Assembly (NCBI GenBank): GCA_001771535.1
Contig: MEUB01000027.1
Span: forward strand, 20,601-84,600
Length of the DNA: 64,000 nucleotides
Reading direction: 5' to 3'
Source of the DNA: a candidate division WOR-1 bacterium RIFOXYB2_FULL_37_13
Lineage (GTDB): Bacteria > Margulisbacteria > WOR-1 > XYC2-FULL-46-14 > XYC2-FULL-37-10
Positions 14,566 to 32,505 of the stretch are shown here, one piece after another (position 1 is the stretch's first letter; the number at the start of each line of letters is the position of its first letter). The notes under the pieces were generated by a model that saw only the letters and a program-made list of their open reading frames with translations, was not told the DNA's origin and made no database searches. A program made the position numbers and the translations under genes.

Positions 14566-14603
14566 TTTTTCTCCATATCTTACGTTAAAACAAATCTATC
14601 CCA

Positions 14604-14638
14604 TGCGTCGCATTTGCGTCGCATTTGCGTCGCATTTA
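14604..14638. repeat. Perfect 11-bp direct repeat x3 (tgcgtcgcatt) in the 75-bp gap upstream of the wzt start codon
   Basis: Read directly: ...ccatgcgtcgcatttgcgtcgcatttgcgtcgcatttacg... Confidence 0.85.
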
Positions 14639-14640
14639 CG

Positions 14641-15996
14641 TTATGCTAAATAATAATAAACGTTTTTACCTTTTCCATTCCGCATAATAAGACTTTTTTC
14701 TTGTAAAGATACAAGTTCTCTAACGGCAGTATCTTTAGATGTATTTAATAATCCCATACAGGTTCTTCTATTTATCTTTTTGTTTTCTCTTAAATAATCC
14801 ACAATCTTTTTCTGCCTTTCATTTAATTCTTTAAAAGACTCCTCACTAATGCGATATTTTCTAAACGTAACAAGGAAGTCTCCAGAGGTTTCTTCAAAGA
14901 TCGGCTCAGGTAAACCTTCTTTTAAACAAGTTTTAACCATTCTGTTTGTTCCAGTACCCCACTCTTCAATATACTTCATTAAAAAGAAACATTTTCCAAT
15001 CAATGGATTTCTTAAAATAGATTTGTGCTTTTTCTTAAGATCCTCTGGGATAAGAGGATTTGGCAGATGTCCGCAACCCCATATTTCCATTCTATCATCA
15101 AAAACCCTAATTTGTATATTGCTTGCAATGCCATAATCTCTATGGCAAATCGCATTCGTAATTGCTTCTCTTATCGCCTCAATCGGATATTCCCATTTTT
15201 CAATCCTCTCGGTTCCTTTAATTTCAGCATGAAGCTTAATATGCTCCTTTATAAACTCTAAAGCATCATCTCGTTGTTGAAAAAGATTTCCTCCGAAAAC
15301 TTTCATATCAATGAATTCTATTGGACTAATTCCTTTAAACCTTGCGCATTTTAATTTTGCCTGTGAAAAGAATTTTTGAGTATTTTTACCAAATAAAAGC
15401 ATTGCGGCATTTGTTAATTTATTATTTACAATCAAATCTAGCCTCTTTAAAACATCTTTTGCTGATATTTTTAGATCAAGATATAGCCTTCTCTCAAAAA
15501 CTATCTTTTTAAGAAAGTTTTTTACTTGCGCAACATCAACATCCTTTAATGTAGCCCCTTTACAGCTTTGCTTATCAAACTGGAGCTTGTCTTTATGCTT
15601 TTCCAAAATCAAAAATTCATATTCATCCTTGCTCATTTTAAATGAGGATTTTCCGACTCTCTTGTATGGCCGCCCAAAAGCCAGCACACTTTTATCTGGA
15701 GATGGCATTACTTGAATTACAATAATTGTTTTACCATCAATCTTTTTCATCGTTATGCTGGGATAAACTTTAGGATCAGTTTCCTGTTGAATTTTATTAG
15801 CAAGACGCTCAAGAGTCCCTTTGCCAATTGATATCCCAATAATATTGCCAGAATCAGAAACGCCAACTAAAATTTTACCGCCTACCGTATTAGAAAAAGC
15901 TGAAATTGTCTCTATAGCTTCATTATCAAAACTCTTCTTAAATTCAACAAGTTCTGATTCGCCTTTTTTTATCAGTTTTTTAATATCTTTATCCAT
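14641..15996 (-). CDS. AlbA_2 (divergent AAA / Schlafen-like) + HATPase_c_4-like + C-terminal winged-helix protein; putative DNA-binding regulator of unknown mechanism
   Basis: N-terminal ESELVEFKKSF...AFSNTVGGKILVGV, typical of the AlbA_2 domain; central AIREAITNAICHRDY motif; C-terminal helix-turn-helix (HTH)-like region. Paralogue of 30305..31672. Confidence 0.65.
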   Translation of the reverse strand: MDKDIKKLIKKGESELVEFKKSFDNEAIETISAFSNTVGGKILVGVSDSGNIIGISIGKGTLERLANKIQQETDPKVYPSITMKKIDGKTIIVIQVMPSPDKSVLAFGRPYKRVGKSSFKMSKDEYEFLILEKHKDKLQFDKQSCKGATLKDVDVAQVKNFLKKIVFERRLYLDLKISAKDVLKRLDLIVNNKLTNAAMLLFGKNTQKFFSQAKLKCARFKGISPIEFIDMKVFGGNLFQQRDDALEFIKEHIKLHAEIKGTERIEKWEYPIEAIREAITNAICHRDYGIASNIQIRVFDDRMEIWGCGHLPNPLIPEDLKKKHKSILRNPLIGKCFFLMKYIEEWGTGTNRMVKTCLKEGLPEPIFEETSGDFLVTFRKYRISEESFKELNERQKKIVDYLRENKKINRRTCMGLLNTSKDTAVRELVSLQEKSLIMRNGKGKNVYYYLA

Positions 15997-16018
15997 AATA
16001 AATTATTTCCTATCCATC

Positions 16019-16939
16019 TTAGATCCCCAACTTTTTTAATATTTTATTAGATATAGAATCAGAATCTAAACCTATTTTTCTCCTGACAAAATCCTGATCC
16101 CCGACATATTTTACGAAACAATCATTCACTCCAAAACATTTAATTCTAGCCATTATGCTTAATTTTGATAATGCTTCTAAAACAGCGGAACCAAACCCTC
16201 CAACAATTGAATGTTCTTCTATTGTAAAAATACACTTTGTTTTAGAGGCTGCAAAAGATATCGCTTTATAATCTATGGGTTTAACTGATGGCATGCTTAT
16301 TAAGTTAACGCTAATTCCCTTATCTTTTAAAATTTTAGCAGTATCCATTGCTGTTTTAAGCATATTACCGGTAGAAAAAATTGAAATATCATTGCCTTTA
16401 AAAATATGAATCGATTTGCCAAAAGAAAATTTTGGTTTTTTATCATGTAAGCGAGGTTCCCCGCTTTTCCCAATTCTTATGTAAGTGGGCCCTTTTTTCT
16501 TATATGCTTCAACAATACAAATTTCAGCTTCAATAGGATCTGCCGGACAAAAAACCTTCATATTTGGTATCGCCCTCATAATGGCAATATCCTCTACTGA
16601 TTGGTGAGTCGATCCTTCTTTTGCATAAGTAAGCCCTCCTCCTAAACCTATAAGAACAACATCCAGATTCTGATAGCACAAATCTATTCGTATTTGCTCA
16701 AAACATCTCATCGAAACAAATGGGGCAAAGGTATAAAGAAAACATCTTTTGCCCGATAATGCCATGCCGGCTGAAACACCTACCATATTTGCCTCAGAAA
16801 TTCCGACATTCAAAAATTGTTTTGGCAATTCCTTTTCAAAATCTTCGAAAACTGAAAAGCCCATATCAGCAGATAAGAGCATAACATTTTTATCTTTCAG
16901 CGCTATTTTCTTAATTGAAGTTACAACTGAGTTTCTCAC
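16019..16939 (-). CDS. Transketolase, C-terminal (pyrimidine-binding + C-terminal domain) subunit of a split transketolase
   Basis: 306 aa; GISEANMVGVSAGMALSGKR...; pairs with the N-terminal subunit with a 4-bp overlap. Confidence 0.8.
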   Translation of the reverse strand: MRNSVVTSIKKIALKDKNVMLLSADMGFSVFEDFEKELPKQFLNVGISEANMVGVSAGMALSGKRCFLYTFAPFVSMRCFEQIRIDLCYQNLDVVLIGLGGGLTYAKEGSTHQSVEDIAIMRAIPNMKVFCPADPIEAEICIVEAYKKKGPTYIRIGKSGEPRLHDKKPKFSFGKSIHIFKGNDISIFSTGNMLKTAMDTAKILKDKGISVNLISMPSVKPIDYKAISFAASKTKCIFTIEEHSIVGGFGSAVLEALSKLSIMARIKCFGVNDCFVKYVGDQDFVRRKIGLDSDSISNKILKKLGI

Positions 16940-17790
16940 TTAATTTTATCTCCAAAGTTACAAAGAGCTTTTTTGAATTCATCCTCTTTTGGTGATCTGT
17001 AATGCCACATCAATGAATCTTCCATAAAAGGAATACCCTTACAATGCACAGTCTTTGCAATGATCAATAAAGGTTTTTTTGATTTTATATTTGCTAAAGA
17101 ATTATATATTTGCAATATATTATGTCCGTCTATTTCTTTTACATTCCAATTGAATGCTTCCCATTTCCGTCTTAAAGGTTCAAGGCTTAAAACATCACTT
17201 GTCCGTCCATATCCTTGGAAACCATTCTTATCTAAAATAACGGTTAAATTATTCAATTTATGATGTGTTGCAAAAAGCGCTGCCTCCCAAATAGAACCTT
17301 CATCACATTCTCCGTCTCCAATAATCGTGTAAACAGAATATTTTTTATTATCTAATTTTGCGCTCAACGCCATGCCAGCCGCAATAGATAGCCCATGGCC
17401 TAAAGATCCCGTAGATGCCTCAATTCCAGGAACACTCCCAAAAACCGGATGTCCTGCCAGTCTCCCATTATTAGAATAATAAGTATTGAGAATTTTTTTA
17501 TTGAAAAATCCTAATTTAGACAAAATAACATATAGGGCAACACAAGCATGCCCCTTGCTTAAAACAAACCTATCCCTATCAGGAGAAACAGATTTTATCT
17601 TATTAACATTTAAAATCTCATAAAACAAAACAATTAAGATATCAACCAATGAATATGCACAACCAATATGCGAACTTTTAGATTTTGTTATAAGCTCTAA
17701 TATTTTCTTCCTCACTTCCATTGAAGTAAACGTAAGTTTATTGATTTTATTTTTCATATAATTCTTTTTTATTTTTTCTAAACCATTCAA
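16936..17790 (-). CDS. Transketolase, N-terminal TPP-binding subunit
   Basis: GHPVFGSVPGIEASTGSLGHGLSIAAGMA...IIGDGECDEGSIWEA is a TPP-binding signature. Confidence 0.8.
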   Translation of the reverse strand: MNGLEKIKKNYMKNKINKLTFTSMEVRKKILELITKSKSSHIGCAYSLVDILIVLFYEILNVNKIKSVSPDRDRFVLSKGHACVALYVILSKLGFFNKKILNTYYSNNGRLAGHPVFGSVPGIEASTGSLGHGLSIAAGMALSAKLDNKKYSVYTIIGDGECDEGSIWEAALFATHHKLNNLTVILDKNGFQGYGRTSDVLSLEPLRRKWEAFNWNVKEIDGHNILQIYNSLANIKSKKPLLIIAKTVHCKGIPFMEDSLMWHYRSPKEDEFKKALCNFGDKIK

Positions 17791-18730
17791 TATAAAGTTT
17801 TAATCCTTCATTTAAATCTATCGTGGGCTCCCAACCTAAAGTTTTCTTTATTTTATCAATATTAGCCTGCCAAAAAGCAGGTTCGCTTTCTCTTGAAGCT
17901 ACCTTGCCCCACAAACATTCATTGCGTTTCCCCATAATACTGCAAATTACATTTAAAATATATTGAACGGAATACTGCCTCCCACTAGAAATATTAAAAA
18001 TTTCACCATTAAGCTTTTTAGCCCCCAGAGAGTTAATTATCTTTAAATATGCATTAACAATATCATCTATAAAACAAAAATCTCTGACAGAAGATGGGTT
18101 TGCCAAATTTGGAATTTTATCCTCTAATAAAGGTTTAATAATTGAAGGAAAAAGTCTCCCTGGATCCTCAAAGTAACCATAAGCAGAAAACAATCTTATA
18201 GTTATAATATTTCTATCTGTTTTTTTAGCTGTTTTTTGGCAAAATAATGTAGTTGCTGCTTTTGAAAGACCATAATCATTAACAGGTTCTAGATAATCTG
18301 TCTCACGCATAGGCTTATTTTTAATTCCATATTCCGAAGAAGACCCTGTATTTATAAATAGTTTTCCATCTGTTTTCAAAAAAGCTTCTAAAAGATTAAT
18401 TGTGCCAAACAGATTAACTTGAAACATTCGTTGTAAATCTTGTTGATAATGATAGCCTCCATATACAGCAAGATGAATTATTATGTCAGGATTAATATCA
18501 CTTAAAACACTCGAAATTTTTTCTTTATCACTTAAATCAGCTTCATAAAACTTTATTTCATCAAATATTCCCCTCAATCTCCACAAATCAGAATCATTTT
18601 TTTTAATTGCATAAACTTTTGCTCCAAGATTTACCAATACACGAGCAATATTTGCGCCAACAAAGCCAGTCACTCCCGTTATTAATATCTTTTCTTTTCC
18701 AATAAAATTATTTTTTTCTGCCTCTTTCAT
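17747..18730 (-). CDS. NAD-dependent epimerase/dehydratase (extended SDR)
   Basis: ILITGVTGFVGANIARVL Rossmann motif; 327 aa. Confidence 0.8.
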   Translation of the reverse strand: MKEAEKNNFIGKEKILITGVTGFVGANIARVLVNLGAKVYAIKKNDSDLWRLRGIFDEIKFYEADLSDKEKISSVLSDINPDIIIHLAVYGGYHYQQDLQRMFQVNLFGTINLLEAFLKTDGKLFINTGSSSEYGIKNKPMRETDYLEPVNDYGLSKAATTLFCQKTAKKTDRNIITIRLFSAYGYFEDPGRLFPSIIKPLLEDKIPNLANPSSVRDFCFIDDIVNAYLKIINSLGAKKLNGEIFNISSGRQYSVQYILNVICSIMGKRNECLWGKVASRESEPAFWQANIDKIKKTLGWEPTIDLNEGLKLYIEWFRKNKKELYEK

Positions 18731-18748
18731 ATAATAATTATTCGAATA

Positions 18749-20086
18749 TTATTTATTAGCATTAGTTTTCATAAACTCATTTACCATTTTAACAATATAT
18801 TCCAACTTCTCTTTTGTCATCCCCGGATAAACCCCAACCCAAAAAGTATTATTCATAATTAAATCCGTATTTGTAAGTTTACCTACAACCCTATATCCCT
18901 TTTTAACCTTTCTCATTTCATCAAATGCCGGATGGCGAAGCATGTTGCCGGCAAAAAGCATTCGCGTTTGTATTTTACTATCCTCGAGATAATTGACGAT
19001 TTCTTCACGAGAAAATCCTGCATCAGGTTTTACAGTAATTAAAAACCCAAACCAACTGGGGTCTGAATCTTTCAGAGCTTTAGAAAATATAAGTTTATCG
19101 GAATATTTGCTTAATGCATCAAGTAAATATCTGTAATTTTTCTTTCTCGCCTCAATAAAGCCTAGAAGTTTATCTAATTGCGCACAGCCAATCGCAGCCT
19201 GCATATCGGTTACCTTTAAATTGTATCCAAAATGAGAATAGATATATTTATGGTCATAGCCATAAGGCAACTCTCCCAACTGCCATTTAAATCTTTTCTT
19301 GCAAGTATCATCCTTTCCACTCGGACACCAGCAATCACGACCCCAATCTCTAAAAGATTCAATAATACGCTTTAACTGAAGATTATTAGTTAAAAGAGCT
19401 CCGCCCTCTCCCATTGTTATGTGGTGAGGCGGATAAAAGCTGCAAGTGGCAATATCACCAAAAGTTCCCGTATATTTGCCTTTATATGTTGAGCCAAGAG
19501 AATCACAATTGTCTTCAATCAGCCATAAATTATGTTTCTTGCAATAGTTCTTAACTTTATCAATATCAAAAGGATTCCCTAAAGTATGAGCAATCATTAC
19601 AGCTTTTGTTTTTTTAGATAAAGCCTTTTCTAGCTTATCACAATCGATATTATAAGAAGGCAAAGTTACGTCAACAAAGACAGGAATAGCTCCAAATTGG
19701 ATAATAGGAGCAATTGTTGTTGGAAACCCTGCGGCAACTGTTATGACCTCATCTCCTCGCTTAATTTTTTTATTGCCAAGCTTAGGAGATGTTAAGGCCA
19801 TAAAAGCCAGAAGATTAGCAGAAGATCCAGAATTTGTTAAACTGCAATGCTTAACGCCAATGAAATCTGCCAATCTTTTTTCAAATTCCGCGGCATAACG
19901 GCCGGAAGTTAGCCAAAATTCAAGAGAGGAATCAACAAGATTGACAAGCTCTTTTTCATCATAAACGCGCCCGCCATAATTAACACGGGTTTCGCCTGGG
20001 ATAAAATCGGATTTTGATTGTGAAGCTTTATAATAATCTTTAACTTTGTTTAAAATTTCTTGTTTGAGTTTATTTTTTTTGTTCAT
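18749..20086 (-). CDS. ddhC: CDP-6-deoxy-D-xylo-4-hexulose-3-dehydrase (E1; DdhC/RfbH), PMP-dependent, with [2Fe-2S]-binding Cys motif
   Basis: Extensive collinear similarity to RfbH: FWLTSGRYAAEFEKRLADFIGVKHCSLTNSGSSANLLA, GDEVITVAAGFPTT, HNLWLIEDNCDSLGSTY, SFYPPHHITMGEGGA, ESFRDWGRDCWCPSGKDDTCKKRF, GYDHKYIYSHFGYNLKVTDMQAA. Confidence 0.85.
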   Translation of the reverse strand: MNKKNKLKQEILNKVKDYYKASQSKSDFIPGETRVNYGGRVYDEKELVNLVDSSLEFWLTSGRYAAEFEKRLADFIGVKHCSLTNSGSSANLLAFMALTSPKLGNKKIKRGDEVITVAAGFPTTIAPIIQFGAIPVFVDVTLPSYNIDCDKLEKALSKKTKAVMIAHTLGNPFDIDKVKNYCKKHNLWLIEDNCDSLGSTYKGKYTGTFGDIATCSFYPPHHITMGEGGALLTNNLQLKRIIESFRDWGRDCWCPSGKDDTCKKRFKWQLGELPYGYDHKYIYSHFGYNLKVTDMQAAIGCAQLDKLLGFIEARKKNYRYLLDALSKYSDKLIFSKALKDSDPSWFGFLITVKPDAGFSREEIVNYLEDSKIQTRMLFAGNMLRHPAFDEMRKVKKGYRVVGKLTNTDLIMNNTFWVGVYPGMTKEKLEYIVKMVNEFMKTNANK

Positions 20087-20152
20087 AATTATCTCCCAAG
20101 TTGTCCTGATTTACCAGGCTAATATTTTGTTTTTATCCTTTTTCTGAATAAT

Positions 20153-21250
20153 TCAAGGCTTATAAAGTTGCCGTTGATCCGGAGTTATAAAATCTTCTTT
20201 TGTAAATACTTCTGAATATGGCACCGGTATTGGTTTGCCATATATTCTTTTTGCTATATATTTATCAATAAAGTTTCTATCTTCAGCAATCCAACATGTA
20301 TCACAATATTGTCCAAACTGTTTAATATTTAAGCCCCGGTCAATAATATCTTTTAAGGGTTCCTCAAAAAAGTTTCCAAGAGAAGTATGAATGTATGGGC
20401 ATGGCATTACATCTCCGTATTTTGTAATTGAAACCATTCTTTTGACAGCAATACAGCCCAACTCAACACCGTAAGAGGGAGTTAAATGTGTAAACACATT
20501 ATGTTTTTTCTCCAATTCTCTCATGTAATCCATATCCGCTCTATCAACCAGACTGCTAAAATTCCCCTCCCAAGCCCCAACTGGCTTTGCATATGATACA
20601 AAAACCCCAACCCCCTTATCATTAAAAAACTTTAAAAATTCAATAAATTCTTGCGATCTGACTCTCTGCTTTGTAACTACAGTTTGTATAATAATCTTTA
20701 ACCCGGCATTCAAGGCCGCATCAACCGCCCTTAACGCCTTTTCATGAGATTTTGCTTTTCGCCTGAACTGATCATGTTCATCAGCTGAAAGACTGTCAAT
20801 ACTAAGTTGGATTTTATCAACTCCTATACTTTTTAAATGTTCTGCTCTCTTTTCATCTAACAACCAACCATTCGTATCAGAAGTTATGTAAAATTTTTGT
20901 GGATCAATAGCATTCACCAACTCATCAAAATCAGGAAAAACCAAAGGTTCTCCACCTGTAATAACAAGGTGTGCAAGCCCCATTTCATCTGCCTGCCGCG
21001 AAAGCTCCTTAACATCATTAATGGTAAAAACCCTGCCATCTTTTCTACCCTGGAACCTTTTTATGCAACAATGTTCACAGACAAAATTACATGTATAATC
21101 ATACTGAAATTGAATTATTGCGATACTTTCCTTGTTTTTAATTTTCTCATCATATTTCAGGATTTTTTCATACACCTGTGGTTTTTCTTTTTTTAGCAAA
21201 AACCTGCCTGCCTCTTCTTGAGAATTCAATTGCCCTTTTTGATTCGACAT
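20153..21250 (-). CDS. Radical SAM enzyme with C-terminal SPASM/twitch-like Cys-rich domain
   Basis: CNFVCEHC (CxxxCxxC) at about residue 55; C-terminal GCIAVKRMVSITKYGDVMPCPY and CDTC motifs. Confidence 0.75.
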   Translation of the reverse strand: MSNQKGQLNSQEEAGRFLLKKEKPQVYEKILKYDEKIKNKESIAIIQFQYDYTCNFVCEHCCIKRFQGRKDGRVFTINDVKELSRQADEMGLAHLVITGGEPLVFPDFDELVNAIDPQKFYITSDTNGWLLDEKRAEHLKSIGVDKIQLSIDSLSADEHDQFRRKAKSHEKALRAVDAALNAGLKIIIQTVVTKQRVRSQEFIEFLKFFNDKGVGVFVSYAKPVGAWEGNFSSLVDRADMDYMRELEKKHNVFTHLTPSYGVELGCIAVKRMVSITKYGDVMPCPYIHTSLGNFFEEPLKDIIDRGLNIKQFGQYCDTCWIAEDRNFIDKYIAKRIYGKPIPVPYSEVFTKEDFITPDQRQLYKP

Positions 21251-21297
21251 AATATTTTCCTCCTAATAATAATTTTATTTTAATCTATTCTTCAACG

Positions 21298-22437
21298 TTA
21301 AACAATCTCTAACCCAAAATCTCTCAATATAGAAACATTAATATTTTTATCAAATTTCTGCCTTACAATTCTTGCCACCTCATCGGAATAACTAGCTGCC
21401 ATAATAATTATTGCATCAACAGGATCAATATTGAGCATGACAGGAGCAACAATAGGGATATGCGTAGCTGAAGTGTATTTCCCCTGTTTAAATGGGGCAG
21501 AATCAACGACATATCTAATTTTATTTGATAAATCTGCCAAAGAAATAATTGCCAAAGCTTGATGGCTAGCCCCCCAAACAGCCACGCTCTTCTGCTTAAA
21601 TTGGCTGATATATCTGTCCATTTCATCTTTAATTTTAGTTTGATGCTGATAAAAAGAAGAAAGATCCATTCTTCTTCCTTTTTTTACAGTGGCAGAAATA
21701 ATAAAATCATGCCAAATCTCACTGCAATCAATAATGTCAAAACCATTCAAATGCAATGTTGTCGTTAATGTTTTTTTTGTAAAATAAAAAATATGATCAG
21801 GAATAAACTCAGAAAAAAGTTTATTGCGTAAAATCATATCAAAATTAGGCACTTCAACTATTCCAATTGCATTAGGTGCCAAATTATTGTAAATTCCTTT
21901 TAATGCGGAATTTGGATCAGGAAAATGCTCAAAAAAGTTTAAAATAAAAAAAGCAGCAAACGGCGCTTGTTTTAATGTATAAGAACCATTGTCAATATAA
22001 CCCTGTTCTACCTTCAGCCCTTGGTTGATGCATTGCGCTACGGATTCGCTCAAATGTTCCAAACCATAAGCCTCTGCTCCACATTGTTGCATAATAGAAA
22101 GATATTCTCCCTTGCCACACCCAATTTCAATTATTTTTTGACCCTTAAGTGAATATTTTTTAAAAAAATCGCTGAATTGTTTTATTCTGAATTTTTCCAT
22201 GTCTTCAGAAAAAGCAGCAGCACGTATAACATCTTTATAATAAGCAACTGGCTCACTGTTTAGCTGTACTAACCTGCATCCCATGCATTCACAAATTTCC
22301 AAATCAATACCTTTTTCAGAGGAAAGTGCTGCTAAATCCGGTAAAAATTGAGCCGATTTAGGCATATTTTTATAATGCAATATAGGTTCTGCAAAAAAAT
22401 CATTCCCGCAGACTCTACAGCATTTGTTTTTTTTCAT
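21298..22437 (-). CDS. SAM-dependent methyltransferase with N-terminal Zn-ribbon, TylC3-like NDP-hexose C-methyltransferase architecture
   Basis: Probable start MKKNKCCRVCGNDF at 22437 (the ORF-track start at 22533 overlaps the upstream gene); central class I MT fold IIEIGCGKGEYL; roughly 100 aa C-terminal domain. Confidence 0.55.
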   Translation of the reverse strand: MKKNKCCRVCGNDFFAEPILHYKNMPKSAQFLPDLAALSSEKGIDLEICECMGCRLVQLNSEPVAYYKDVIRAAAFSEDMEKFRIKQFSDFFKKYSLKGQKIIEIGCGKGEYLSIMQQCGAEAYGLEHLSESVAQCINQGLKVEQGYIDNGSYTLKQAPFAAFFILNFFEHFPDPNSALKGIYNNLAPNAIGIVEVPNFDMILRNKLFSEFIPDHIFYFTKKTLTTTLHLNGFDIIDCSEIWHDFIISATVKKGRRMDLSSFYQHQTKIKDEMDRYISQFKQKSVAVWGASHQALAIISLADLSNKIRYVVDSAPFKQGKYTSATHIPIVAPVMLNIDPVDAIIIMAASYSDEVARIVRQKFDKNINVSILRDFGLEIV

Positions 22438-22438
22438 A

Positions 22439-22948
22439 TTAAATAAATTCCCTATACATTTCATTGTGAGCAGAAATAATGTTGCAAGGACAATTGCTGT
22501 GCCATAACCACTGGTTTGCATGAGGAGCCTCACTATTATATTTCAAGCTTTCATCAAGCTTATCAATTAAACGACATTGATATAAGAACGAAATAAAATG
22601 ACCCCTGACTTGCCTATCTTTTATAAGACACTCTTTTGTTGCCAAAGGAACAGGATTATAATCTACTAAAGCCCTAAGCTCATTTTTGGCTACTGCTTTT
22701 ATTCTATCAGCCAGAGTTTCCTTATATCGGATTATACCGCCAGGCAAATGCCATCCGGCAGAAGCAAATCCGTCATCACGCCAGGTTAAAAGTGTTCTAT
22801 TCTGCTCGTCTTTTATCAACAAATCTACATTAACAAGAGGTGTGATTTTACTTATAAAAAGAAATATTTCTTCAGGCAACCCTTTTGATGGGTTTCCAAT
22901 AAAAGATGACAAGAGTTCTATTGCCTGCGTAATTTCCATTGATTTCAT
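22439..22948 (-). CDS. NUDIX hydrolase (GDP-mannose mannosyl hydrolase / WcaH-like)
   Basis: WHLPGGIIRYKETLADRIKAVAKNELRA resembles a Nudix box; 169 aa. Confidence 0.5.
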   Translation of the reverse strand: MKSMEITQAIELLSSFIGNPSKGLPEEIFLFISKITPLVNVDLLIKDEQNRTLLTWRDDGFASAGWHLPGGIIRYKETLADRIKAVAKNELRALVDYNPVPLATKECLIKDRQVRGHFISFLYQCRLIDKLDESLKYNSEAPHANQWLWHSNCPCNIISAHNEMYREFI

Positions 22949-23817: not shown

Positions 23818-23838
23818 AATATCATTTCCTTTTGATAT

Positions 23839-24900: not shown

Positions 24901-24936
24901 TTTTTACCTCCAATAATTTCGATTTATTGTATTTTC

Positions 24937-25914
24937 TTAGCACGATTTGTCTACCTTAAATGAAAGCGTCTGTAATGCAATTTCAAGCGCATTTATCCCA
25001 TCATCAAGCGTACAAATCGGCTCGGTTTCACGGCGAATCACAGATAAGAAATGGCGCATTTCATCAATAAACAATGAATTCCTTTCGAAATATTTTGGCG
25101 CTTCAATAAATTCCCAAGCAGAATGATTCGGTCTATAAATTGATAACTGGCCATCTGCATTATTCCAACGGATTGTGCCATTTGTTCCAATAACTTCCAA
25201 GTGGTGAGTTGTTGGCCTTTGTATATAATCAAGATGCACAGATCCAAATGCTCCATTAGGAAATTTCAAGTATACATCCGCAACATCTTCAACATTGATA
25301 CCTAGATCTCCTACTGTATCTGTATGCGCCCACATGAATTCAGGTTTTCCAAATAACCAGCTTAAATAATCAAATGGATGGCAAAGGGTTAAAACAACTC
25401 CACCGCCCAAGTCTGGACGAGCTGCATAACTGTTCCGAAAATCTTCCCATGGATGCCAGTCAGGCAAATATTCTCCCCAATGAACATTAATAGAAACTAT
25501 TCTACCAATTTCTCCTTGGGAAATCATATTAGAAGCAATCTTAAGTGTAGGATGAAATCGATACTGAAAGCCAACTAAAAATTGTCCTCCACCATGCTTC
25601 AAGGCTGCTTTTAATTTATCTATCCCTGCTAATGAATCAGAAATAGGCTTTTCGATTAAAATATGGCAACCAGCTTCTGCAGCCGGAATTGCAATATCAA
25701 AATGTAATGAAGTCGGATTTGATATTATTACAGCATCTGGTTCATGCTTTAAAGCCGAATAAATATTAGTTTCAATTGGAAATTCTTTGAATTCATCATC
25801 AATTGGAGAGGCAACCTTATTACGGCATAAAACAATATCTTTTTCTCCAAGAGAAATTAAATTCTTCAAATGCCTGCGCCCAATAGATCCAAGCCCAACA
25901 ACAACAAATTTCAT
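24937..25914 (-). CDS. Gfo/Idh/MocA family NAD(P)-dependent oxidoreductase
   Basis: MKFVVVGLGSIGRRHLKNL N-terminal Rossmann motif; EKPIS motif. Confidence 0.8.
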   Translation of the reverse strand: MKFVVVGLGSIGRRHLKNLISLGEKDIVLCRNKVASPIDDEFKEFPIETNIYSALKHEPDAVIISNPTSLHFDIAIPAAEAGCHILIEKPISDSLAGIDKLKAALKHGGGQFLVGFQYRFHPTLKIASNMISQGEIGRIVSINVHWGEYLPDWHPWEDFRNSYAARPDLGGGVVLTLCHPFDYLSWLFGKPEFMWAHTDTVGDLGINVEDVADVYLKFPNGAFGSVHLDYIQRPTTHHLEVIGTNGTIRWNNADGQLSIYRPNHSAWEFIEAPKYFERNSLFIDEMRHFLSVIRRETEPICTLDDGINALEIALQTLSFKVDKSC

Positions 25915-25941
25915 TTTATATTTTTTCCTTATTTAAAAACC

Positions 25942-27747
25942 CTATTCTTCAAGCGGAGGAATAATCATATTTTCAAGAAATTCCTTTCTATCCAAAAAAG
26001 GCCATAAATCTTCTAATGGTTTTGAAACCATTGTTCCATCCTGTTTTTGAATAGTACTCATGCTGGGAGCCCTTGGTTCATCTGGAGGAGTAAGAATTTC
26101 GCAAACTACGGTTCCCGCCATATTCAAAACTTCCCGAAGTTTGTCAGCCAGCTTTTCTTGGCTGGTTATTTTTTTGATTTTAAGTCCATATGCTTGCGCA
26201 ACTTTACAAATATCCGGAAGTTCAAGCCCGCTGGTAGAATCAGCCCCTGTCAACCTATTAAAATATCTCATTTGTGAAGTGCGTATAGATGAATATCCCT
26301 GATTATTTAATACAAATATTTTTATTGGCAAGTTAAGTCTGGCTAAAGTTTCAAACTCTTGAATATTAAATTGAATGCCACCATCACCATCTACACAAAT
26401 AGTCCGTTTTTTATCACTTGCAAGACATCCTCCAATACTGGCCGGTAACCCATTCCCCATCGAACCTAATGCTGTTGTATTCAAAACTCTTTGACCCTTT
26501 TTTGCTTTAAAAGCAAGTAAAAATATCTCAATACCAGCACCAGAACTGCAGGGGATCACAATATCATCGCTATTTAGCTCATCTGAAAGAACCTCAGTAA
26601 AAACATATGTACTGACAAGTTTCTCTTCTCTATATTCTAGCAATACAACCGGATATTTCTTCTTCCATTCTTTACATCTAATAAGCCAATTTGAACGGTT
26701 CTTTGGCAGAATGCTATTTAGCTGTTTTATCATTTCTTGAATAAATATTTTAACATCAGAACAAATTGGAACATCTATTTTAGTCTGCATTTTATTAATT
26801 TCTGCCGGATCTATGTCTATCATGATTTTTTTGGCTGCTCGCGCAAATTTTTCATGGGAATACCCCGTTACAACGGTATCCAACCTGGCGCCAATGCTAA
26901 TTAAACAATCTGAATTTTGAAGGGCGAAGTTTGCGCCGCGTGGAGCTACAGGGCCTGGCCGGCCAACCAATAAATCATATGAATCTGATAAAATATCAAG
27001 GGCAGGCCATGTTAACAATACTGGTATTTTTAATTGCTCAATCAAAAAAAGTGCATCCTTTATTGCCCCTGATAAGCGCGTTCCATTCCCTAACAATAGT
27101 ATAGGCCTTTCAGACTTATTTAATAATTCAATTGTTTTTGAAACTAGATCAGATATATTATTTCCCTGCGATTGGTTGATAATATTTTTTTCATCAAAGC
27201 CTTCTAGTTGATCAATATCAATTATTGAAGCTTGAACATCTAAAGGGATATCAATCCATACAGGCCCTGGCCTGCCTGATTTTGTCAGATAAACCGCTTT
27301 TTCTAAATGAAAGCGGATGCTACTAGGATCCATAATAGTAACAGAATATTTGGTAATAGATTTTACAATCGGAACAATATTAACTTCTTGTACGCCGTTT
27401 TGCCTTACACCCAAATTGCCAATAAGATCAGACCTTTTAACCTGTCCTGAAATAAACATACACGGGGTAGAATCCAACCATGCCCCTGCTACTCCGGTAA
27501 TAGCATTGGTTCCCCCAGGACCAGTTGTTACTAATGCTACGCCCATGTTATTTTTTGCAATTCTTGCATAAGTTTCTGCTGCCATTGCGCTAGCCTGTTC
27601 ATGTTGATTGCAAACAAATTCAATATTTTTATTGTGGCCAATAGAATCATTCAAGTGCATAGCACCCCCACCCGGAACCATAAACACATGCTTAACTCCC
27701 TGGTCAACTAAAAATTTAACAACATAATCAGATAATTTGATTTTCAT
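25942..27747 (-). CDS. TPP-dependent enzyme of the acetolactate-synthase large-subunit family (YerE-like branched-sugar C-C ligase candidate)
   Basis: 601 aa; N-terminal pyrimidine-binding domain with VFMVPGGGAMHLND; C-terminal TPP-binding GSMGNGLPASIGG...DGDGGIQFNIQE. Confidence 0.8.
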   Translation of the reverse strand: MKIKLSDYVVKFLVDQGVKHVFMVPGGGAMHLNDSIGHNKNIEFVCNQHEQASAMAAETYARIAKNNMGVALVTTGPGGTNAITGVAGAWLDSTPCMFISGQVKRSDLIGNLGVRQNGVQEVNIVPIVKSITKYSVTIMDPSSIRFHLEKAVYLTKSGRPGPVWIDIPLDVQASIIDIDQLEGFDEKNIINQSQGNNISDLVSKTIELLNKSERPILLLGNGTRLSGAIKDALFLIEQLKIPVLLTWPALDILSDSYDLLVGRPGPVAPRGANFALQNSDCLISIGARLDTVVTGYSHEKFARAAKKIMIDIDPAEINKMQTKIDVPICSDVKIFIQEMIKQLNSILPKNRSNWLIRCKEWKKKYPVVLLEYREEKLVSTYVFTEVLSDELNSDDIVIPCSSGAGIEIFLLAFKAKKGQRVLNTTALGSMGNGLPASIGGCLASDKKRTICVDGDGGIQFNIQEFETLARLNLPIKIFVLNNQGYSSIRTSQMRYFNRLTGADSTSGLELPDICKVAQAYGLKIKKITSQEKLADKLREVLNMAGTVVCEILTPPDEPRAPSMSTIQKQDGTMVSKPLEDLWPFLDRKEFLENMIIPPLEE

Positions 27748-28304
27748 TAAACACCTATAGTTATAGTTTCTTTTGCTTTCATTTTTTGTTCCAATAGCAT
27801 ATCTAAGAATTCACGAACAGCCCCATCTCCACCCCTATGTCGAGTTATAAAGTCAACACTTTTTAAAACTGAGGGATGCGCATTAGGAGGGGCAACTGAC
27901 AAGCCAACAATTTTCATTGCAGGCAAATCATTGACGTCATCACCAATAAAGCATATTTCCGATAAATCAAAGTTATTCCTTTTGGCAAATTCAATAATCG
28001 ATTTTGCCTTATCTTTACAGCCTTTATATATTTCTTCAATCTTAAGTTTTTGTGCATATCTCTCCACAATTGCCATGCCTGAGACACTGCTTTCACCCGA
28101 CATTAGAGCAATTTTTATGCCTGCTTTTTGGGCAAAAGGAATCCCTGTTATATCTGCAAAACAAAAACGTTTTAGTTCAACATTATTTGAGTCCCACCAA
28201 AATGTTCCATCTGTCAAAACACCATCAACATCCATAACAACCGCTTTTATTTGATCAATTTTTATATTTTCAAGCATTTTATATCCCCCAAAGCTATCAG
28301 ACAT
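27747..28304 (-). CDS. HAD-IIIA phosphatase, KdsC family (3-deoxy-ulosonate-phosphate phosphatase-like)
   Basis: VVMDVDGVLTDG (HAD motif I) and FIGDDVNDLPAM (motif IV); 185 aa. Confidence 0.75.
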   Translation of the reverse strand: MSDSFGGYKMLENIKIDQIKAVVMDVDGVLTDGTFWWDSNNVELKRFCFADITGIPFAQKAGIKIALMSGESSVSGMAIVERYAQKLKIEEIYKGCKDKAKSIIEFAKRNNFDLSEICFIGDDVNDLPAMKIVGLSVAPPNAHPSVLKSVDFITRHRGGDGAVREFLDMLLEQKMKAKETITIGV

Positions 28305-29166
28305 TTCTAAGTCTTTTTATAATGGCTTCTTCCTTTGGTACAATCCTTTTTATGCCATCTCCCATAGACTTTTCAACCAATCGAATATCTCTCATTAAAC
28401 GATTTAATCCGTTTGGTTCCAAAGATGCCGCATGGTCAGATCCCCACATGGCTCTATCAAGAGTAATATGGCGCTCTATAACACAAGCTCCCATAACAGA
28501 AGCCGCCACAGATGTAGCCAGCCCTGTTTCATGCCCTGAATACCCAACAGGAACTTGATATCTATCTTTTAAAAAAGGTATTACCCTAAGATTCAAGTCT
28601 TCATAGCTTGCAGGATAAGCACTGCAACAATGGAGCAAGATTAAATCATTCTTCTGCAATATATCGACAGCATGATCAAGTTGTTCTAATGAAGACATGC
28701 CAGTTGATAGGATTATAGATCTTCCTTGTTTTCTTACATGTTTCAACAAAGCATCATCGGTTAATTTGGCAGCAGGAATTTTGTAACATGGGATATTGTA
28801 TTTCTCAAGAAAATCAACTGAATCCATATCCCAGGCAGATGCAAACCATGTTATCCCTATCTCTTTGCAAAATCTCTCAATTTCATCATATTCATTCTTT
28901 TCAAATTCAACCCTTTTGCGATATTCAAAATATGTCATATTGCCCCATGGGGTTTCACGAACAATATCTCGCTGACTAACTGGAACACATAATTCTGGAT
29001 TGCGTTTCTGGAATTTTACAGCATTACATCCTGATGCAGCCGCAACAGTGATTAATTTTTTTGCAATATTCACATCCCCGTTATGATTTATGCCAATTTC
29101 TGAAATAAAATAAGCAGGCTGTCCATCTCCAACTTTTGTATTTCTAATATTTACCGTATTATCCAT
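28297..29166 (-). CDS. NeuB-family PEP-dependent sugar synthase (N-acetylneuraminate / ulosonic acid synthase-like), TIM-barrel only; no SAF/antifreeze C-terminal domain
   Basis: YFISEIGINHNGDVNIAKKLITVAAASGCNAVKFQKR matches the NeuB N-terminal signature; 289 aa versus about 340 aa for canonical NeuB/PseI. Confidence 0.7.
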   Translation of the reverse strand: MDNTVNIRNTKVGDGQPAYFISEIGINHNGDVNIAKKLITVAAASGCNAVKFQKRNPELCVPVSQRDIVRETPWGNMTYFEYRKRVEFEKNEYDEIERFCKEIGITWFASAWDMDSVDFLEKYNIPCYKIPAAKLTDDALLKHVRKQGRSIILSTGMSSLEQLDHAVDILQKNDLILLHCCSAYPASYEDLNLRVIPFLKDRYQVPVGYSGHETGLATSVAASVMGACVIERHITLDRAMWGSDHAASLEPNGLNRLMRDIRLVEKSMGDGIKRIVPKEEAIIKRLRNV

Positions 29167-29219
29167 TTTTTTCTCCTTTTAAATTTTTACTGATGATTTG
29201 GTAAAATAATTTATTGTTT

Positions 29220-30308
29220 TCATGTTTTATTTACCTTTATGCCTTTAGAATATAATTCTATTTGATTATAACAAACTCTCCTCAGGTCTTTTCTTTCTTT
29301 ATAAGCTCTAGTCCACTCAACAATCTTATCAAGTGCTTTTTCCAAATCCCATTTAGGATTCCAATCTAATCTTTTTTTAACCTTAGTACAATCTAATTTT
29401 AAATAATGCGCCTCATGAGGATGCATCCCTTTATCAATTTCATAAGAAGCAGCTTCTCCCCATTTAAAGCATAATTTCTTAACAATCCATAAAACGGATC
29501 TTGAATCTTTCTCATCAGAACCAAAGTTCCAAGCTTGTGAATATTTAGCTCCATTTTCATATAATTTTTCAGCCAAAAGAAGATATCCGAAAAGTGGTTC
29601 CAAAACATGTTGCCATGGTCGTATTGCTTTTGGGTTTCTAATTGTAATTTTTTTATTGCTTAAAATTGCTCTCACAAAATCAGGGATTAGACGATCTTGC
29701 GCCCAATCCCCACCACCGACAACATTCCCCGCCCTAGCAGTCGCAATTCCAACTCCATGAGCAGAATATTCTTTTGGGTTAAAAAATGAATTTCTATAAG
29801 CGGCTGTTACAATTTCAGAGCATGCTTTGCTGCTGGAATAAGGATCATATCCCCCTAAAGGTTCGTCTTCGCAATAGCCTGCAGCTCTTTCTTTGTTTTC
29901 ATAACATTTATCTGTAGTTACATTTATAAAAGCTCGAACAGTTTTACAGATTCTTACGGCTTCCAATAAATTTACTGTTCCCATTACATTTGTAGAATAA
30001 GTATCTACTGGATTTTTATAAGAATCACGAACCAAAGGTTGCGCCGCCATATGAATCACAATATCAGGTTTTGCCTTAAACAAAGCTTTTTGAAGATTTT
30101 CTAAATCCCTTATATCTCCGATAACAGAAGTTACAAGTTCTTCTATCTTGCATAATTTAAATAAACTGGGATTTGTAGGTGGATTTAATGCATAACCTGT
30201 AACTTTTGCTCCAAGCAAGTTAAGCCATAAAGAAAGCCATGCGCCTTTAAAGCCTGTATGGCCCGTTAAGAAGACTCTTTTATCTTTCCAGAAATTTTTA
30301 TTAATCAT
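29220..30308 (-). CDS. ddhB: CDP-glucose 4,6-dehydratase
   Basis: NFWKDKRVFLTGHTGFKGAWLSLWL is the RfbG/DdhB signature; probable start at the internal Met (30308), overlapping the upstream gene by 4 bp. Confidence 0.85.
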   Translation of the reverse strand: MINKNFWKDKRVFLTGHTGFKGAWLSLWLNLLGAKVTGYALNPPTNPSLFKLCKIEELVTSVIGDIRDLENLQKALFKAKPDIVIHMAAQPLVRDSYKNPVDTYSTNVMGTVNLLEAVRICKTVRAFINVTTDKCYENKERAAGYCEDEPLGGYDPYSSSKACSEIVTAAYRNSFFNPKEYSAHGVGIATARAGNVVGGGDWAQDRLIPDFVRAILSNKKITIRNPKAIRPWQHVLEPLFGYLLLAEKLYENGAKYSQAWNFGSDEKDSRSVLWIVKKLCFKWGEAASYEIDKGMHPHEAHYLKLDCTKVKKRLDWNPKWDLEKALDKIVEWTRAYKERKDLRRVCYNQIELYSKGIKVNKT

Positions 30309-31672
30309 TTTTTTTCTTGCTTGCTCGTTATTAATATCTTCCAAAATCCACCTTTATCAGGACCAATTCTCTTAATAATCCCCTTACTCTTGAGCTTCAT
30401 TAAATTCTCCTCGGTTTTACGCAAAGAAATCCCAATGGCATTTGCAATTTTTACGGCAGAAATATTGGACTCTTTATAAATCAGATTGACTATTTTTTTC
30501 TGATTTGGTGTTAATCTTTCACCGACCTTTTCACCGACCTTTTCACCGACCTTTTCACCGACCTTTTCACCGACCTTACTAAAAAATGTTACAGAAAAGA
30601 TTCCCGATTCTTCAAGAAACTCGGGTTCCGGTAGTCCCTGTTTCTTACAACCAGCAATTATCTTAAGCGTTCCGCTCCCCCAACTTTCAATAAAACCAGC
30701 TTTATAAAATATGTCAGCCAACAGTACATTTCTTGGCTTCGATATGTGTTTTTGCTTCAATTTGATGATTGGAAGCTCTTTTGGCATTTTGCCTTCATTC
30801 ATAATAATAAGCTTTTCATCATATATTCTTATTTGCACCGCGGAAGTTCCGGTATAATCCCTATGAACAAGAGAATTTAAGACCGCTTCTCTAAGCGCAT
30901 TATATGGATATTCAAGCTTTTCTCTTCGATGGATGCCTTCATAGGAAATTCGACTTACCAAATACTTTGTCTTTAACATATTCATAACAACTTCAACTTG
31001 ATTAAATAGGTTTCCTTCAACAACATCGCTGGTTAATATTTCGCTATCAGACTTGAATTTCCCTATTTTTACATGGGCTTGCGGATAAAAGGCCTGAACT
31101 TGCCTGCCAAATAAGAGAAGAGCAGCTCTTTTGAAACGTTTATTTTTCAATAAGTTTAATTTATTAAGTATATCTACAGGAGCCTTTTCGTTTTCAATAT
31201 ATGGAAGCCTATCTAATGATAATTTTTTAAAATCTTTAATTGTTTTATCGTCTATATCAGTCATCTTTGCGCCTTCTTCAATAACTTCGTCCCATGTTTG
31301 ACCTGATTTTTTCAAAAGAAAATTTGCTAATTCATTTCCGGAAAGCTCTAGAACAACGCTTCCGCTCCTAATGTAATATTTGCCTTCATAAGAGATAGGA
31401 ACGGACACAGGTTTTATCTTTAATACAATATAATATTTTTTTGATTTTTGTCTAATTAAAATATCAGGTATTATCCCCAATTTATTATTTACTTTATTAG
31501 GAACAATTTCCAATATTTTTTTTGGATCAGGAACTCCAACAATAACACCCTTGTCATCTATTCCAATAAATACCTCTCCTCCATTAGTATTAGCAAAAGC
31601 ACATACTACTCTCAAGATCGAATCATTCCATTCTCTTTTAAATTCTATATTTTGTTTTTCAATGTTTTTCAT
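30305..31672 (-). CDS. AlbA_2 (Schlafen-like) + HATPase_c_4-like + winged-helix protein, paralogue of 14641..15996; contains a (GEKV)5 tandem peptide repeat linker
   Basis: IEFKREWNDSILRVVCAFANTNGGEVFIGI; LREAVLNSLVHRDY; C-terminal wHTH; repeat KVGEKVGEKVGEKVGEKVGER. Confidence 0.65.
   Translation of the reverse strand: MKNIEKQNIEFKREWNDSILRVVCAFANTNGGEVFIGIDDKGVIVGVPDPKKILEIVPNKVNNKLGIIPDILIRQKSKKYYIVLKIKPVSVPISYEGKYYIRSGSVVLELSGNELANFLLKKSGQTWDEVIEEGAKMTDIDDKTIKDFKKLSLDRLPYIENEKAPVDILNKLNLLKNKRFKRAALLLFGRQVQAFYPQAHVKIGKFKSDSEILTSDVVEGNLFNQVEVVMNMLKTKYLVSRISYEGIHRREKLEYPYNALREAVLNSLVHRDYTGTSAVQIRIYDEKLIIMNEGKMPKELPIIKLKQKHISKPRNVLLADIFYKAGFIESWGSGTLKIIAGCKKQGLPEPEFLEESGIFSVTFFSKVGEKVGEKVGEKVGEKVGERLTPNQKKIVNLIYKESNISAVKIANAIGISLRKTEENLMKLKSKGIIKRIGPDKGGFWKILITSKQEKK
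30515..30578. repeat. 12-bp tandem repeat x5 (ttttcaccgacc) inside CDS 30305..31672, encoding a (GEKV)n linker
   Basis: Read directly: tttcaccgaccttttcaccgaccttttcaccgaccttttcaccgaccttttcaccgacctt. Confidence 0.9.
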
Positions 31673-31697
31673 TTATATCAAACACCAATTGGAACCA

Positions 31698-32483
31698 TTA
31701 TTCCCAAACCTTCCACGGCGCATTCCCTTTATTCCACATTTCATTTAGAAGGACAGAGTCGCGATAGGTATCCATACATTGCCAAAAGTCAGAATGGGGA
31801 TACATCATAAGCTCCTCTTTCTTAACCAGGTTTTCCAGCGGTTTTTTTTCAAGAATACAATCATCATCAGTTGAAAGAAAATCAAATAATTCCCTTTTAA
31901 AAACAAAAAAGCCGCCATTTATATGTCCTTCAGAAACCGTCGGCTTTTCATTAAAGCTTAAAACTTTATTGTCTTTTGACGATATTTCACCAAATCTTGA
32001 TGGGGGTCTGACCGCTGTAATCGTAGCTGTTTTCCCATGTTCATGATGAAACTCTAAAAGTTTACTAATATCAACATTCGCTAAGCCATCTCCATAGGTA
32101 AGAAAAAATTCTTTGTCACTCCCAATAAAATCCTTAATTTTCGCAACACGGCTGCCTGTTTGAGAAAGTTGCCCAGTATTTACAAAAGTGATATTCCAAT
32201 CTTCTAAGGTGGAGCTGTTATGATGAATTACTCTTTCCTCTTTTGACCTTAAATTCAAAGTAAAGTCATTCATTAACTCTTCAAATTTTAAAAAATAGTC
32301 TTTTATCATATCCCCTTTATAACCCAAGCACAAAATAAAATTTTTATATCCATAGTGAGAATATGTCTTCATAATGTGCCATAAAATCGGCATTTCTCCA
32401 ATTGGCACTAAAGGTTTTGGCCGATATTCTGTTTCCTCGCGTAAACGAGTTCCCTGTCCGCCGCAAAGAATAACTACTTTCAT
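31698..32483 (-). CDS. ddhA: Glucose-1-phosphate cytidylyltransferase
   Basis: MKVVILCGGQGTRLREETEYRPKPLVPIGEMPILWHIMKTYSHYGYKNFILCLGYKGDMIKDYFL closely matches RfbF. Confidence 0.85.
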   Translation of the reverse strand: MKVVILCGGQGTRLREETEYRPKPLVPIGEMPILWHIMKTYSHYGYKNFILCLGYKGDMIKDYFLKFEELMNDFTLNLRSKEERVIHHNSSTLEDWNITFVNTGQLSQTGSRVAKIKDFIGSDKEFFLTYGDGLANVDISKLLEFHHEHGKTATITAVRPPSRFGEISSKDNKVLSFNEKPTVSEGHINGGFFVFKRELFDFLSTDDDCILEKKPLENLVKKEELMMYPHSDFWQCMDTYRDSVLLNEMWNKGNAPWKVWE

Positions 32484-32505
32484 GTTTTACCTCCGTATTT
32501 ATTCC

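Follow-up and report, generated by a model that had tools for sequence, protein, structure and literature searches.

Gene content and integrity of the block

The window analyzed here is a 64,000-nucleotide stretch of contig MEUB01000027.1 from candidate division WOR-1 bacterium RIFOXYB2_FULL_37_13, an uncultured bacterium represented in a groundwater metagenome. Within it, a block of ∼18 kb, filled by 17 genes, separates wzm from wzt, the permease and ATPase genes of an ATP-binding cassette (ABC) glycan exporter. Gene identities were established from Pfam and NCBIfam profile matches judged against curated cut-offs, from matches to PDB sequences, and by motif inspection (Table 1). All of the genes are encoded on the minus strand and tightly packed, neighbors being −95 to +75 bp apart. 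The block combines genes for a cytidine diphosphate (CDP)-activated dideoxyhexose with an enzyme of the acetolactate synthase (ALS) superfamily that uses thiamine diphosphate (ThDP), a NeuB-like synthase acting on phosphoenolpyruvate (PEP), a KdsC-like HAD phosphatase, two radical S-adenosylmethionine (SAM) enzymes, two short-chain dehydrogenases/reductases (SDRs) and a split transketolase. Every enzyme gene named in a preliminary description of this DNA was recovered by the profile searches at its expected position and strand, but that inventory had overlooked two AlbA_2/HTH genes, which occupy ∼2.7 kb of the 18 kb.

The preliminary description had also pointed out that wzm and wzt are normally adjacent. 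This is the case in all four comparator loci in which both occur (L025, L043, L155 and L159), and thus their separation is a real peculiarity of this WOR-1 lineage. The possibility of an assembly chimera, raised at the same time, is ruled out because the gene order is identical in six independent assemblies from different samples. A comparison of the block with its flanks had been suggested as a test of horizontal acquisition. The GC content is 0.34 in the block and 0.31 and 0.32 in the flanks, and a search around the block found no boundary or flanking repeats. Since there is no break in GC, composition gives no sign of a foreign origin.

Table 1. Genes of the block and of the exporter that encloses it.
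Feature	Coordinates	Strand	Evidence
wzm, ABC-2 permease of glycan exporter	32506..33339	-	PF01061 64.5 bits; closest homologues 49-67% identical, beside wzt in L025, L043, L155, L159
ddhA, glucose-1-phosphate cytidylyltransferase	31698..32483	-	TIGR02623 335.8 bits (cut-off 300)
AlbA_2/HATPase_c_4/wHTH protein (gene 1); putative DNA-binding regulator or selfish insert	30305..31672	-	Pfam; absent from all related loci
ddhB, CDP-glucose 4,6-dehydratase	29220..30344	-	TIGR02622 504 bits (cut-off 278)
NeuB-family PEP-condensing synthase, short, SAF-less, 289 residues; proposed maker of a phospho-3-deoxy-2-ulosonic acid	28297..29166	-	PF03102 274 bits
KdsC/YrbI-family HAD phosphatase; proposed ulosonate-phosphate phosphatase	27747..28304	-	TIGR01670 138 bits (cut-off 107)
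ALS-superfamily ThDP enzyme, 601 residues; proposed decarboxylating carboligase	25942..27747	-	all three TPP_enzyme domains
Gfo/Idh/MocA oxidoreductase; candidate side-chain reductase or dehydrogenase	24937..25914	-	Pfam
Radical SAM/SPASM enzyme 1, BtrN-like auxiliary-cluster domain	23839..24900	-	Pfam; CNMKCKMC motif
SDR290 (290 residues), distantly ADP-heptose 6-epimerase-like	22945..23817	-	profile and PDB matches
Nudix hydrolase, weakly GDP-mannose mannosyl hydrolase (Gmm)-like	22439..22948	-	PF00293 20.8 bits (cut-off 21.1); NF011963 29 bits
TylC3/TcaB9-type sugar C-methyltransferase	21298..22437	-	Methyltransf_13, _23, _14
Radical SAM/SPASM enzyme 2, MoaA/BlsE-like core	20153..21250	-	CNFVCEHC motif
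ddhC/rfbH, CDP-6-deoxy-4-hexulose 3-dehydrase (E1)	18749..20086	-	NF011936 763 bits (cut-off 423)
SDR327, extended SDR (327 residues), NDP-4-ketosugar reductase/epimerase-like; split-transketolase partner	17747..18730	-	PDB matches
Split transketolase, N-terminal ThDP-binding subunit (TKN)	16936..17790	-	PF00456; GDG-X26-N motif
Split transketolase, C-terminal pyrimidine-binding subunit (TKC)	16019..16939	-	PF02779 and PF02780
Second AlbA_2/HATPase_c_4/HTH protein (gene 2)	14641..15996	-	Pfam; 32% identical to first copy
wzt, ABC ATPase with C-terminal extension	13255..14565	-	PF00005 81.9 bits; Wzt_C 26.2 bits (cut-off 30.4)

DdhA, DdhB and DdhC (RfbH) all exceed their curated equivalog cut-offs. 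RfbH contains the cysteine motif C194-X57-C252-X-C254-X7-C262 and has a His-His pair at the position of the lysine that binds pyridoxal 5'-phosphate in aminotransferases. We take this cysteine set, together with histidine in place of lysine, to be the E1 signature described by the Liu laboratory; the earlier assignment of ddhC as an E1 dehydrase is thus borne out.

The ThDP enzyme does not qualify as an acetolactate synthase. With its best ALS model, TIGR00118, it reaches 391 bits where 538 are required, and the cut-offs of all the other ALS models are missed by a wide margin. Among PDB sequences, 8rph (JanthE) ranks first with 395 bits, followed by 5ahk, which we take to be PpYerE, with 274 bits, and plant acetohydroxyacid synthase (AHAS) with 257 bits. 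The alignment to JanthE runs end to end and includes a shared C-terminal tail (DGT.VS.PLEDL.P), whereas those to 5ahk and plant AHAS end before the PLEDL segment. The ThDP motif is a canonical GDG, as opposed to CDG in JanthE. JanthE, from Janthinobacterium sp. HH01, joins α-keto acids, among them 4-hydroxy-2-oxovalerate, to acceptors, some of which are ketones (PMC12188165). Its residues Y297 and K567 are reported to be important for tertiary-alcohol formation, and K567S is named as a single point mutation in the conclusion of the engineering paper. By alignment only, Y297 maps to a conserved tyrosine (about residue 296) and K567 to a serine (about residue 562) of the block enzyme.

Automatic annotation labels this gene "acetolactate synthase large subunit". 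A housekeeping acetolactate synthase, or a chimeric block, is nevertheless hardly credible, given the concordance of the six assemblies, the failure at every ALS cut-off, the absence of ilvN, ilvC or ilvD neighbors, and a sugar context that is conserved across phyla. The preliminary description had considered a grouping with true acetolactate synthases; the closest solved relative is JanthE instead. These observations support a pathway in which a CDP-3,6-dideoxy-4-ketohexose would feed a ThDP enzyme of the ALS family whose role is other than acetolactate synthesis.

Relatives of the ThDP enzyme are found in at least 537 GTDB species genomes, nearly all of them metagenome-assembled, as well as in Nostoc and Dolichospermum, and the family is 55–76% identical across phyla. 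One locus labeled "uncultured archaeon" (L064, contig CABMIH010000015.1) encodes a ThDP enzyme with 59% identity along with homologues of the Nudix hydrolase, radical SAM enzyme 2 and RfbH; its archaeal label could be due either to gene transfer between domains or to faulty binning.

Conserved neighborhood of the ThDP enzyme

The strongest evidence on function comes from genomic context. We examined the best 80 loci containing the ThDP enzyme, at the species level, by searching them with all block proteins. Of the 80, 70 encode a NeuB homologue; in 61 it is no more than 1.5 kb from the ThDP gene, and in 69 the two genes share a strand. Where at least 8 kb of sequence is available on both flanks (43 loci), RfbH is found in 41 and ddhA in 35, which argues for a functional link between the ThDP enzyme and a 3,6-dideoxy-4-ketosugar. 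The KdsC-like HAD phosphatase accompanies a short NeuB in 46 of 50 loci and a long or fused NeuB in none of 20. In the two long-NeuB loci with domain calls, those of Nostoc and Kiritimatiellia, NeuB is fused to an AP_endonuc_2 domain. When NeuB itself was used as the anchor, all three loci showed the order rfbH-SDR-NeuB-HAD-ThDP, preceded by other CDP-sugar genes as far as the flank extends. The 39 control loci (≥5 kb), for which the split transketolase served as the anchor, all lack NeuB, the HAD phosphatase and the ThDP enzyme, and these include loci with ddhA and rfbH. NeuB, with or without the phosphatase, is the most constant partner of the ThDP enzyme across phyla.

The NeuB-like synthase has the metal-ligand histidine motifs SGHE and ERH, and no SAF domain was found in its 289 residues with Pfam. 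It scores below the equivalog cut-offs of TIGR03569 (263 vs. 400) and TIGR03586 (217 vs. 340); similarly, the phosphatase is below the equivalog for the phosphatase of 2-keto-3-deoxynononic acid 9-phosphate (KDN-9-P; 134 vs. 180 bits). No CMP-ulosonate synthetase (CTP_transf_3) is encoded in the 64-kb window or in the Pfam-annotated loci L007–L009 and L170–L172. The block does not contain a pyruvate aldolase either, and NeuB and the phosphatase stand in its place. The preliminary description had treated NeuB and the phosphatase as side items and had predicted a yersiniose-like or a more heavily modified sugar. Its CDP-dideoxyhexose and ThDP components hold, but a two-carbon branch from pyruvate is judged less likely because of the constancy of NeuB and the phosphatase, which points to a long branch, and the lack of a CMP-ulosonate synthetase in the window.

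Two versions of the gene cluster can be distinguished. The common version contains an SDR of ∼355 residues, AP_endonuc_2, Gfo, adh_short, two methyltransferases and a family 2 glycosyltransferase (GT2). In the lineage of the window and in Margulisiibacteriota L010, WOR-1 L011 and Elusimicrobia L008, Gfo is kept and the rest is exchanged for radical SAM enzyme 1, SDR290, the Nudix hydrolase, the C-methyltransferase and radical SAM enzyme 2. The set from NeuB through radical SAM enzyme 2 is nearly fully syntenic in L010 and L008. In the common version, an AP_endonuc_2 TIM barrel and a Gfo/Idh/MocA oxidoreductase flank the ThDP enzyme, an arrangement that recalls IolE, IolG and IolD (L017, 11860–13841; L007, 11853–14105; L009, 7688–9985).

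Proposed pathway and its alternatives

On balance, we consider it fairly probable from these family assignments and gene neighborhoods that the block forms an operon whose products are one or two CDP-activated 3,6-dideoxyhexoses branched at C-4, one with a NeuB-derived branch, destined for a surface glycan exported by Wzm/Wzt. The curated families predict that DdhA, DdhB and the iron-sulfur/pyridoxamine 5'-phosphate enzyme DdhC would convert glucose-1-phosphate into CDP-4-keto-3,6-dideoxy-D-glucose, with the electron donor (E3 in Yersinia) necessarily coming from outside the window. Judging from family and context, the SAF-less NeuB-type synthase would join PEP to an aldose, whose phosphorylation is implied by the YrbI-family phosphatase, and the KdsC-like phosphatase would then remove the phosphate to give a free 3-deoxy-2-ulosonic acid, a γ-hydroxy α-keto acid. 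As NeuB yields the same class of acid as pyruvate aldolases, we propose that NeuB and the HAD phosphatase replace an aldolase as the donor supply. By analogy with JanthE, ErwE and MMAR_2332, and in view of its context, the ThDP enzyme would decarboxylate the ulosonic acid and attach the acyl-anion equivalent so formed to the CDP-sugar at its C-4 ketone, producing a tertiary alcohol that bears a long polyhydroxyalkyl branch. The Gfo/Idh/MocA oxidoreductase and/or SDR290 may reduce the branch carbonyl, while the C-methyltransferase, the Nudix hydrolase and the two radical SAM enzymes may carry out further tailoring, such as methylation beside the ketone, deoxygenation or epimerization. SDR327 and the split transketolase, which form a recurring module, may work on the same CDP-ketosugar pool, most plausibly by donating a two-carbon hydroxyacetyl group, from which a second sugar with a short branch would result.

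A more elaborate outcome, which we regard as quite improbable, is that a C7–C9 ulosonic acid made by NeuB is grafted whole to give a 12–14-carbon sugar, whose side chain, in this lineage, is deoxygenated or cyclized through a C–C bond by the two radical SAM/SPASM enzymes, leading to a carbocyclic or bicyclic monosaccharide like caryose or bradyrhizose. Such grafting and cyclization would constitute a new biosynthetic logic for higher-carbon sugars in many uncultured phyla.

Several points weigh against the proposed branched-sugar pathway. The ThDP enzyme is 35% identical to JanthE, 34% to 5ahk/PpYerE and 32% to plant AHAS (AtAHAS), and its sequence by itself does not place it firmly among ketone-accepting enzymes. 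Because identity is this modest (32–35%), the term "YerE-like", used in the preliminary description, describes a hypothetical function and not orthology. The physiological substrates of JanthE are not established (PMC12188165). The hydroxyacetyl branching of ketosugars by split transketolases, as in miharamycin and amipurimycin, has been proposed but never shown in vitro (PMC12247030). No ddhD/E3 reductase, that is, no flavodoxin-reductase or 2Fe-2S ferredoxin-type gene, is present among the open reading frames (ORFs) of the 64-kb window; E3-type reductase genes are also absent from related loci L007–L009 and L170–L172. A YerF orthologue was not identified, and the candidates for the reductase are Gfo, SDR290 and SDR327. 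For the ∼355-residue SDR, the GT2 and the methyltransferases that most related loci share, the window has no orthologues, and the chemistry of this lineage may therefore differ from that of the common version. Finally, branch length follows from the aldose substrate of NeuB, for which sequence permits no defensible prediction.

The closest precedents are the systems for erwiniose, caryophyllose and gastriose. Steitz et al. (PMC9306805) reported that ErwE, MMAR_2332 and MyGE use γ-hydroxy α-keto acids from neighboring pyruvate aldolases (ErwI, MMAR_2331 and MygI), and proposed that these acids are added to CDP-4-keto-3,6-dideoxyglucose to form the three sugars. The block shares with them the genes for CDP-4-keto-3,6-dideoxyglucose, an ALS-superfamily ThDP enzyme and a gene for a γ-hydroxy α-keto acid, as well as a predicted product that is a long-branched 3,6-dideoxyhexose of a surface glycan. 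It differs in that its donor would be made irreversibly from PEP by NeuB and a KdsC-like phosphatase rather than by a pyruvate aldolase, in lacking E3 and a recognizable YerF, and in the addition of two radical SAM enzymes, a Nudix hydrolase and a TylC3-type C-methyltransferase. The yersiniose A pathway of Yersinia pseudotuberculosis (DdhA–D, YerE and YerF) likewise has DdhA, DdhB, DdhC and an ALS-like ThDP enzyme in one operon, but YerE takes pyruvate and forms a C2 branch, whereas the NeuB/HAD pair of the block points to a longer donor, and ddhD is absent. The pairing of a PEP-condensing synthase, predicted to take a phosphorylated aldose, with a YrbI-family phosphatase resembles the KDN-9-P synthase and phosphatase of Bacteroides thetaiotaomicron and the logic of 3-deoxy-D-manno-octulosonic acid (Kdo) 8-phosphate synthesis with KdsC; unlike those systems, the block has no CMP-activating enzyme, its NeuB and HAD proteins score below the equivalog cut-offs, and the two genes sit in a CDP-sugar/ThDP operon. 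As in the clusters with a proposed hydroxyacetyl branching for miharamycin and amipurimycin (PMC12247030), a two-gene transketolase lies beside an oxidoreductase and genes for a nucleotide-activated ketosugar; those clusters belong to Streptomyces secondary metabolism, in contrast to the surface-glycan loci of uncultured bacteria. Relative to the published aldolase/YerE scheme, what would be new is the NeuB-based donor supply. We found no paper that links NeuB to YerE-like enzymes, in a literature coverage that lies outside the in silico survey of >200 YerE-like clusters (Krug et al. 2024). Searches on rfbH, transketolase, neuB and ALS, and on radical SAM enzymes with CDP-sugars, returned nothing relevant.

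Among alternatives to the proposed pathway, the ThDP enzyme might use pyruvate to form a C2 acetyl branch of the yersiniose type, with an independent Kdo-, KDN- or sialic acid-like residue of the glycan being made by NeuB and the phosphatase. Pyruvate is preferred by YpYerE and is also accepted by JanthE (PMC12247030), and NeuB with a KdsC-like phosphatase is the known pairing of KDN-9-P synthase and phosphatase, the latter model matching with 134 bits. A separate ulosonate is unlikely, however, as CTP_transf_3 is missing from both the window and the six annotated related loci, NeuB lies beside the ThDP enzyme in 61 of 80 loci from many phyla yet is absent from other ddhA/rfbH loci, and this NeuB lacks a SAF domain and falls below both the NeuB and PseI equivalog cut-offs.

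It is also conceivable, though slightly less probable still, that the ThDP enzyme acts as a plain decarboxylase, turning the NeuB product into a 2-deoxy-aldose, or splits a cyclic dione like IolD, and that the CDP-dideoxyhexose genes are unrelated neighbors. The side-by-side occurrence of Gfo/Idh/MocA, AP_endonuc_2 and ThDP genes in the common cluster, like IolG, IolE and IolD, and the fusion of AP_endonuc_2 to NeuB in Nostoc and Kiritimatiellia would fit such a role. The prevalence of RfbH in full-flank loci (41/43) speaks against unrelated neighbors, and a free 2-deoxy-aldose would find neither a kinase nor a second nucleotidyltransferase for its activation. IolD, moreover, is not among the best 25 of the 54 NCBIfam matches of the ThDP enzyme, and the window has no AP_endonuc_2 gene. 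Lastly, the split transketolase could make the aldose-phosphate substrate of NeuB instead of branching a ketosugar, which would leave a single product. Transketolases normally interconvert sugar phosphates, NeuB and the phosphatase need a phosphorylated aldose, and in vitro evidence for ketosugar-accepting transketolases is lacking (PMC12247030). We nonetheless find this arrangement very doubtful: a transketolase occurs near the ThDP enzyme in only two of 80 loci, at a distance, and SDR-TKN-TKC recurs with ddhA and rfbH but without NeuB.

Tailoring genes, export and implications

The Gfo homologue adjoins the ThDP enzyme in 35 of the 80 loci. Radical SAM enzyme 1 is restricted to five, the closest relatives only, and AP_endonuc_2 is found in 26; the two never co-occur. 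It may be speculated that they substitute for each other, for example as a dehydratase in deoxygenation. Both radical SAM enzymes have the CX3CX2C motif and SPASM-type domains. The sole PDB match of enzyme 1 is the twitch domain of BtrN, and matches to the BtrN auxiliary domain, MoaA and BlsE are too distant for a function to be assigned to either enzyme. The Nudix hydrolase accompanies radical SAM enzyme 2 in L010, L064, L066, L073 and L081. The C-methyltransferase exceeds the cut-offs of Methyltransf_23 and Methyltransf_14; Methyltransf_13 scores 25.6 against 31.3, with its CxxC...CxxC pattern present. Together with PDB matches to mycarose 3-C-methyltransferase and TcaB9 (E ∼1e-21), these domains confirm the TylC3-like architecture noted previously. 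The start of the C-methyltransferase is probably internal to an ORF ending at 22533, with gene calls of 379 and 388 residues.

SDR327 matches UDP-glucose 4-epimerase and GDP-6-deoxy-4-hexulose reductase in PDB. The SDR327-TKN-TKC trio recurs in L090, L099, L101 and L167, and in the metagenomic loci L090 and L099 it is accompanied by ddhA, ddhB and rfbH, with NeuB and the ThDP enzyme both missing. Since the trio recurs apart from NeuB and the ThDP enzyme, the block is a fusion of two modules with DdhABC in common.

The two AlbA_2 (Schlafen-like) genes are probably outside the pathway. Gene 1 splits ddhA from ddhB and gene 2 is located at the wzt junction; neither was found in any of the related loci searched. 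We considered the pair as recombination flanks and rejected this, the two being only 32% identical. Gene 1 contains a perfect 12-nt tandem repeat in five copies (30517–30577), which encodes a (GEKV)n linker. Its product has 447 residues in assembly L003, as opposed to 455 residues here, a difference equal to two repeat units. This would fit copy-number variation in the population, with only the lengths having been compared. An AAA_14-domain ATPase gene (1280–2701) located among glycosyltransferase genes is an orphan ATPase-type gene like the AlbA_2 genes.

The core domains of Wzm and Wzt are both present, the Wzt_C match being below its cut-off. The same sugar genes directly follow wzm-wzt in loci from Isosphaeraceae, Acidobacteriota and Terriglobia, which supports incorporation of the product into an ABC transporter-dependent glycan; entry into a Wzm/Wzt-exported glycan, as suggested earlier, is thus probable. 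No dedicated glycosyltransferase could be assigned. The GT2 that is conserved in 50 of the 80 related loci has only a distant relative in the window (61821–62786; 29% identity), and the window's own glycosyltransferases have no conserved counterparts.

Genes upstream of the block encode Wza-like and Wzz proteins as well as gmd/fcl, and those downstream a GT2, a GT10 fucosyltransferase-like protein and GT4s. The gmd gene and an fcl-like SDR gene (33336–35333) lie directly upstream of wzm, and the GT10 gene (10546–11559) is downstream of wzt; fucose or a different 6-deoxyhexose is thus a probable further constituent of the exported glycan. Elsewhere in the window are genes for a Wzx-type flippase (42881–44428), PMT_2 (51903–53495), a GT9 heptosyltransferase-like protein (54721–55881), UDP-glucose dehydrogenase (56083–57405) and DUF6056 (59289–61040), and for a 734-residue fusion of a zinc-type alcohol dehydrogenase domain to a Gfo/Idh/MocA oxidoreductase (40637–42841). 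Over positions 1–64000, all ORFs of at least 110 residues with a family match are on the minus strand, and the GC skew is uniformly negative. The whole 64-kb window is one surface-glycan superlocus.

If the proposed pathway is correct, the NeuB and ThDP enzymes of such loci, annotated in metagenomes as "N-acetylneuraminate synthase" and "acetolactate synthase", would be mislabeled, and a pathway for long-branched surface sugars would extend over many phyla, with at least 537 species-level genomes encoding it. The known aldolase/YerE scheme would gain an irreversible, PEP-driven donor supply, and the ThDP enzymes would represent new carboligases with polyhydroxylated donors for tertiary-alcohol synthesis. 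The core genes also occur in Nostoc strains and all of the enzymes are ordinary soluble proteins, making the proposal directly testable. The pathway would also allow predictions about the glycan structures of organisms that are still beyond cultivation.

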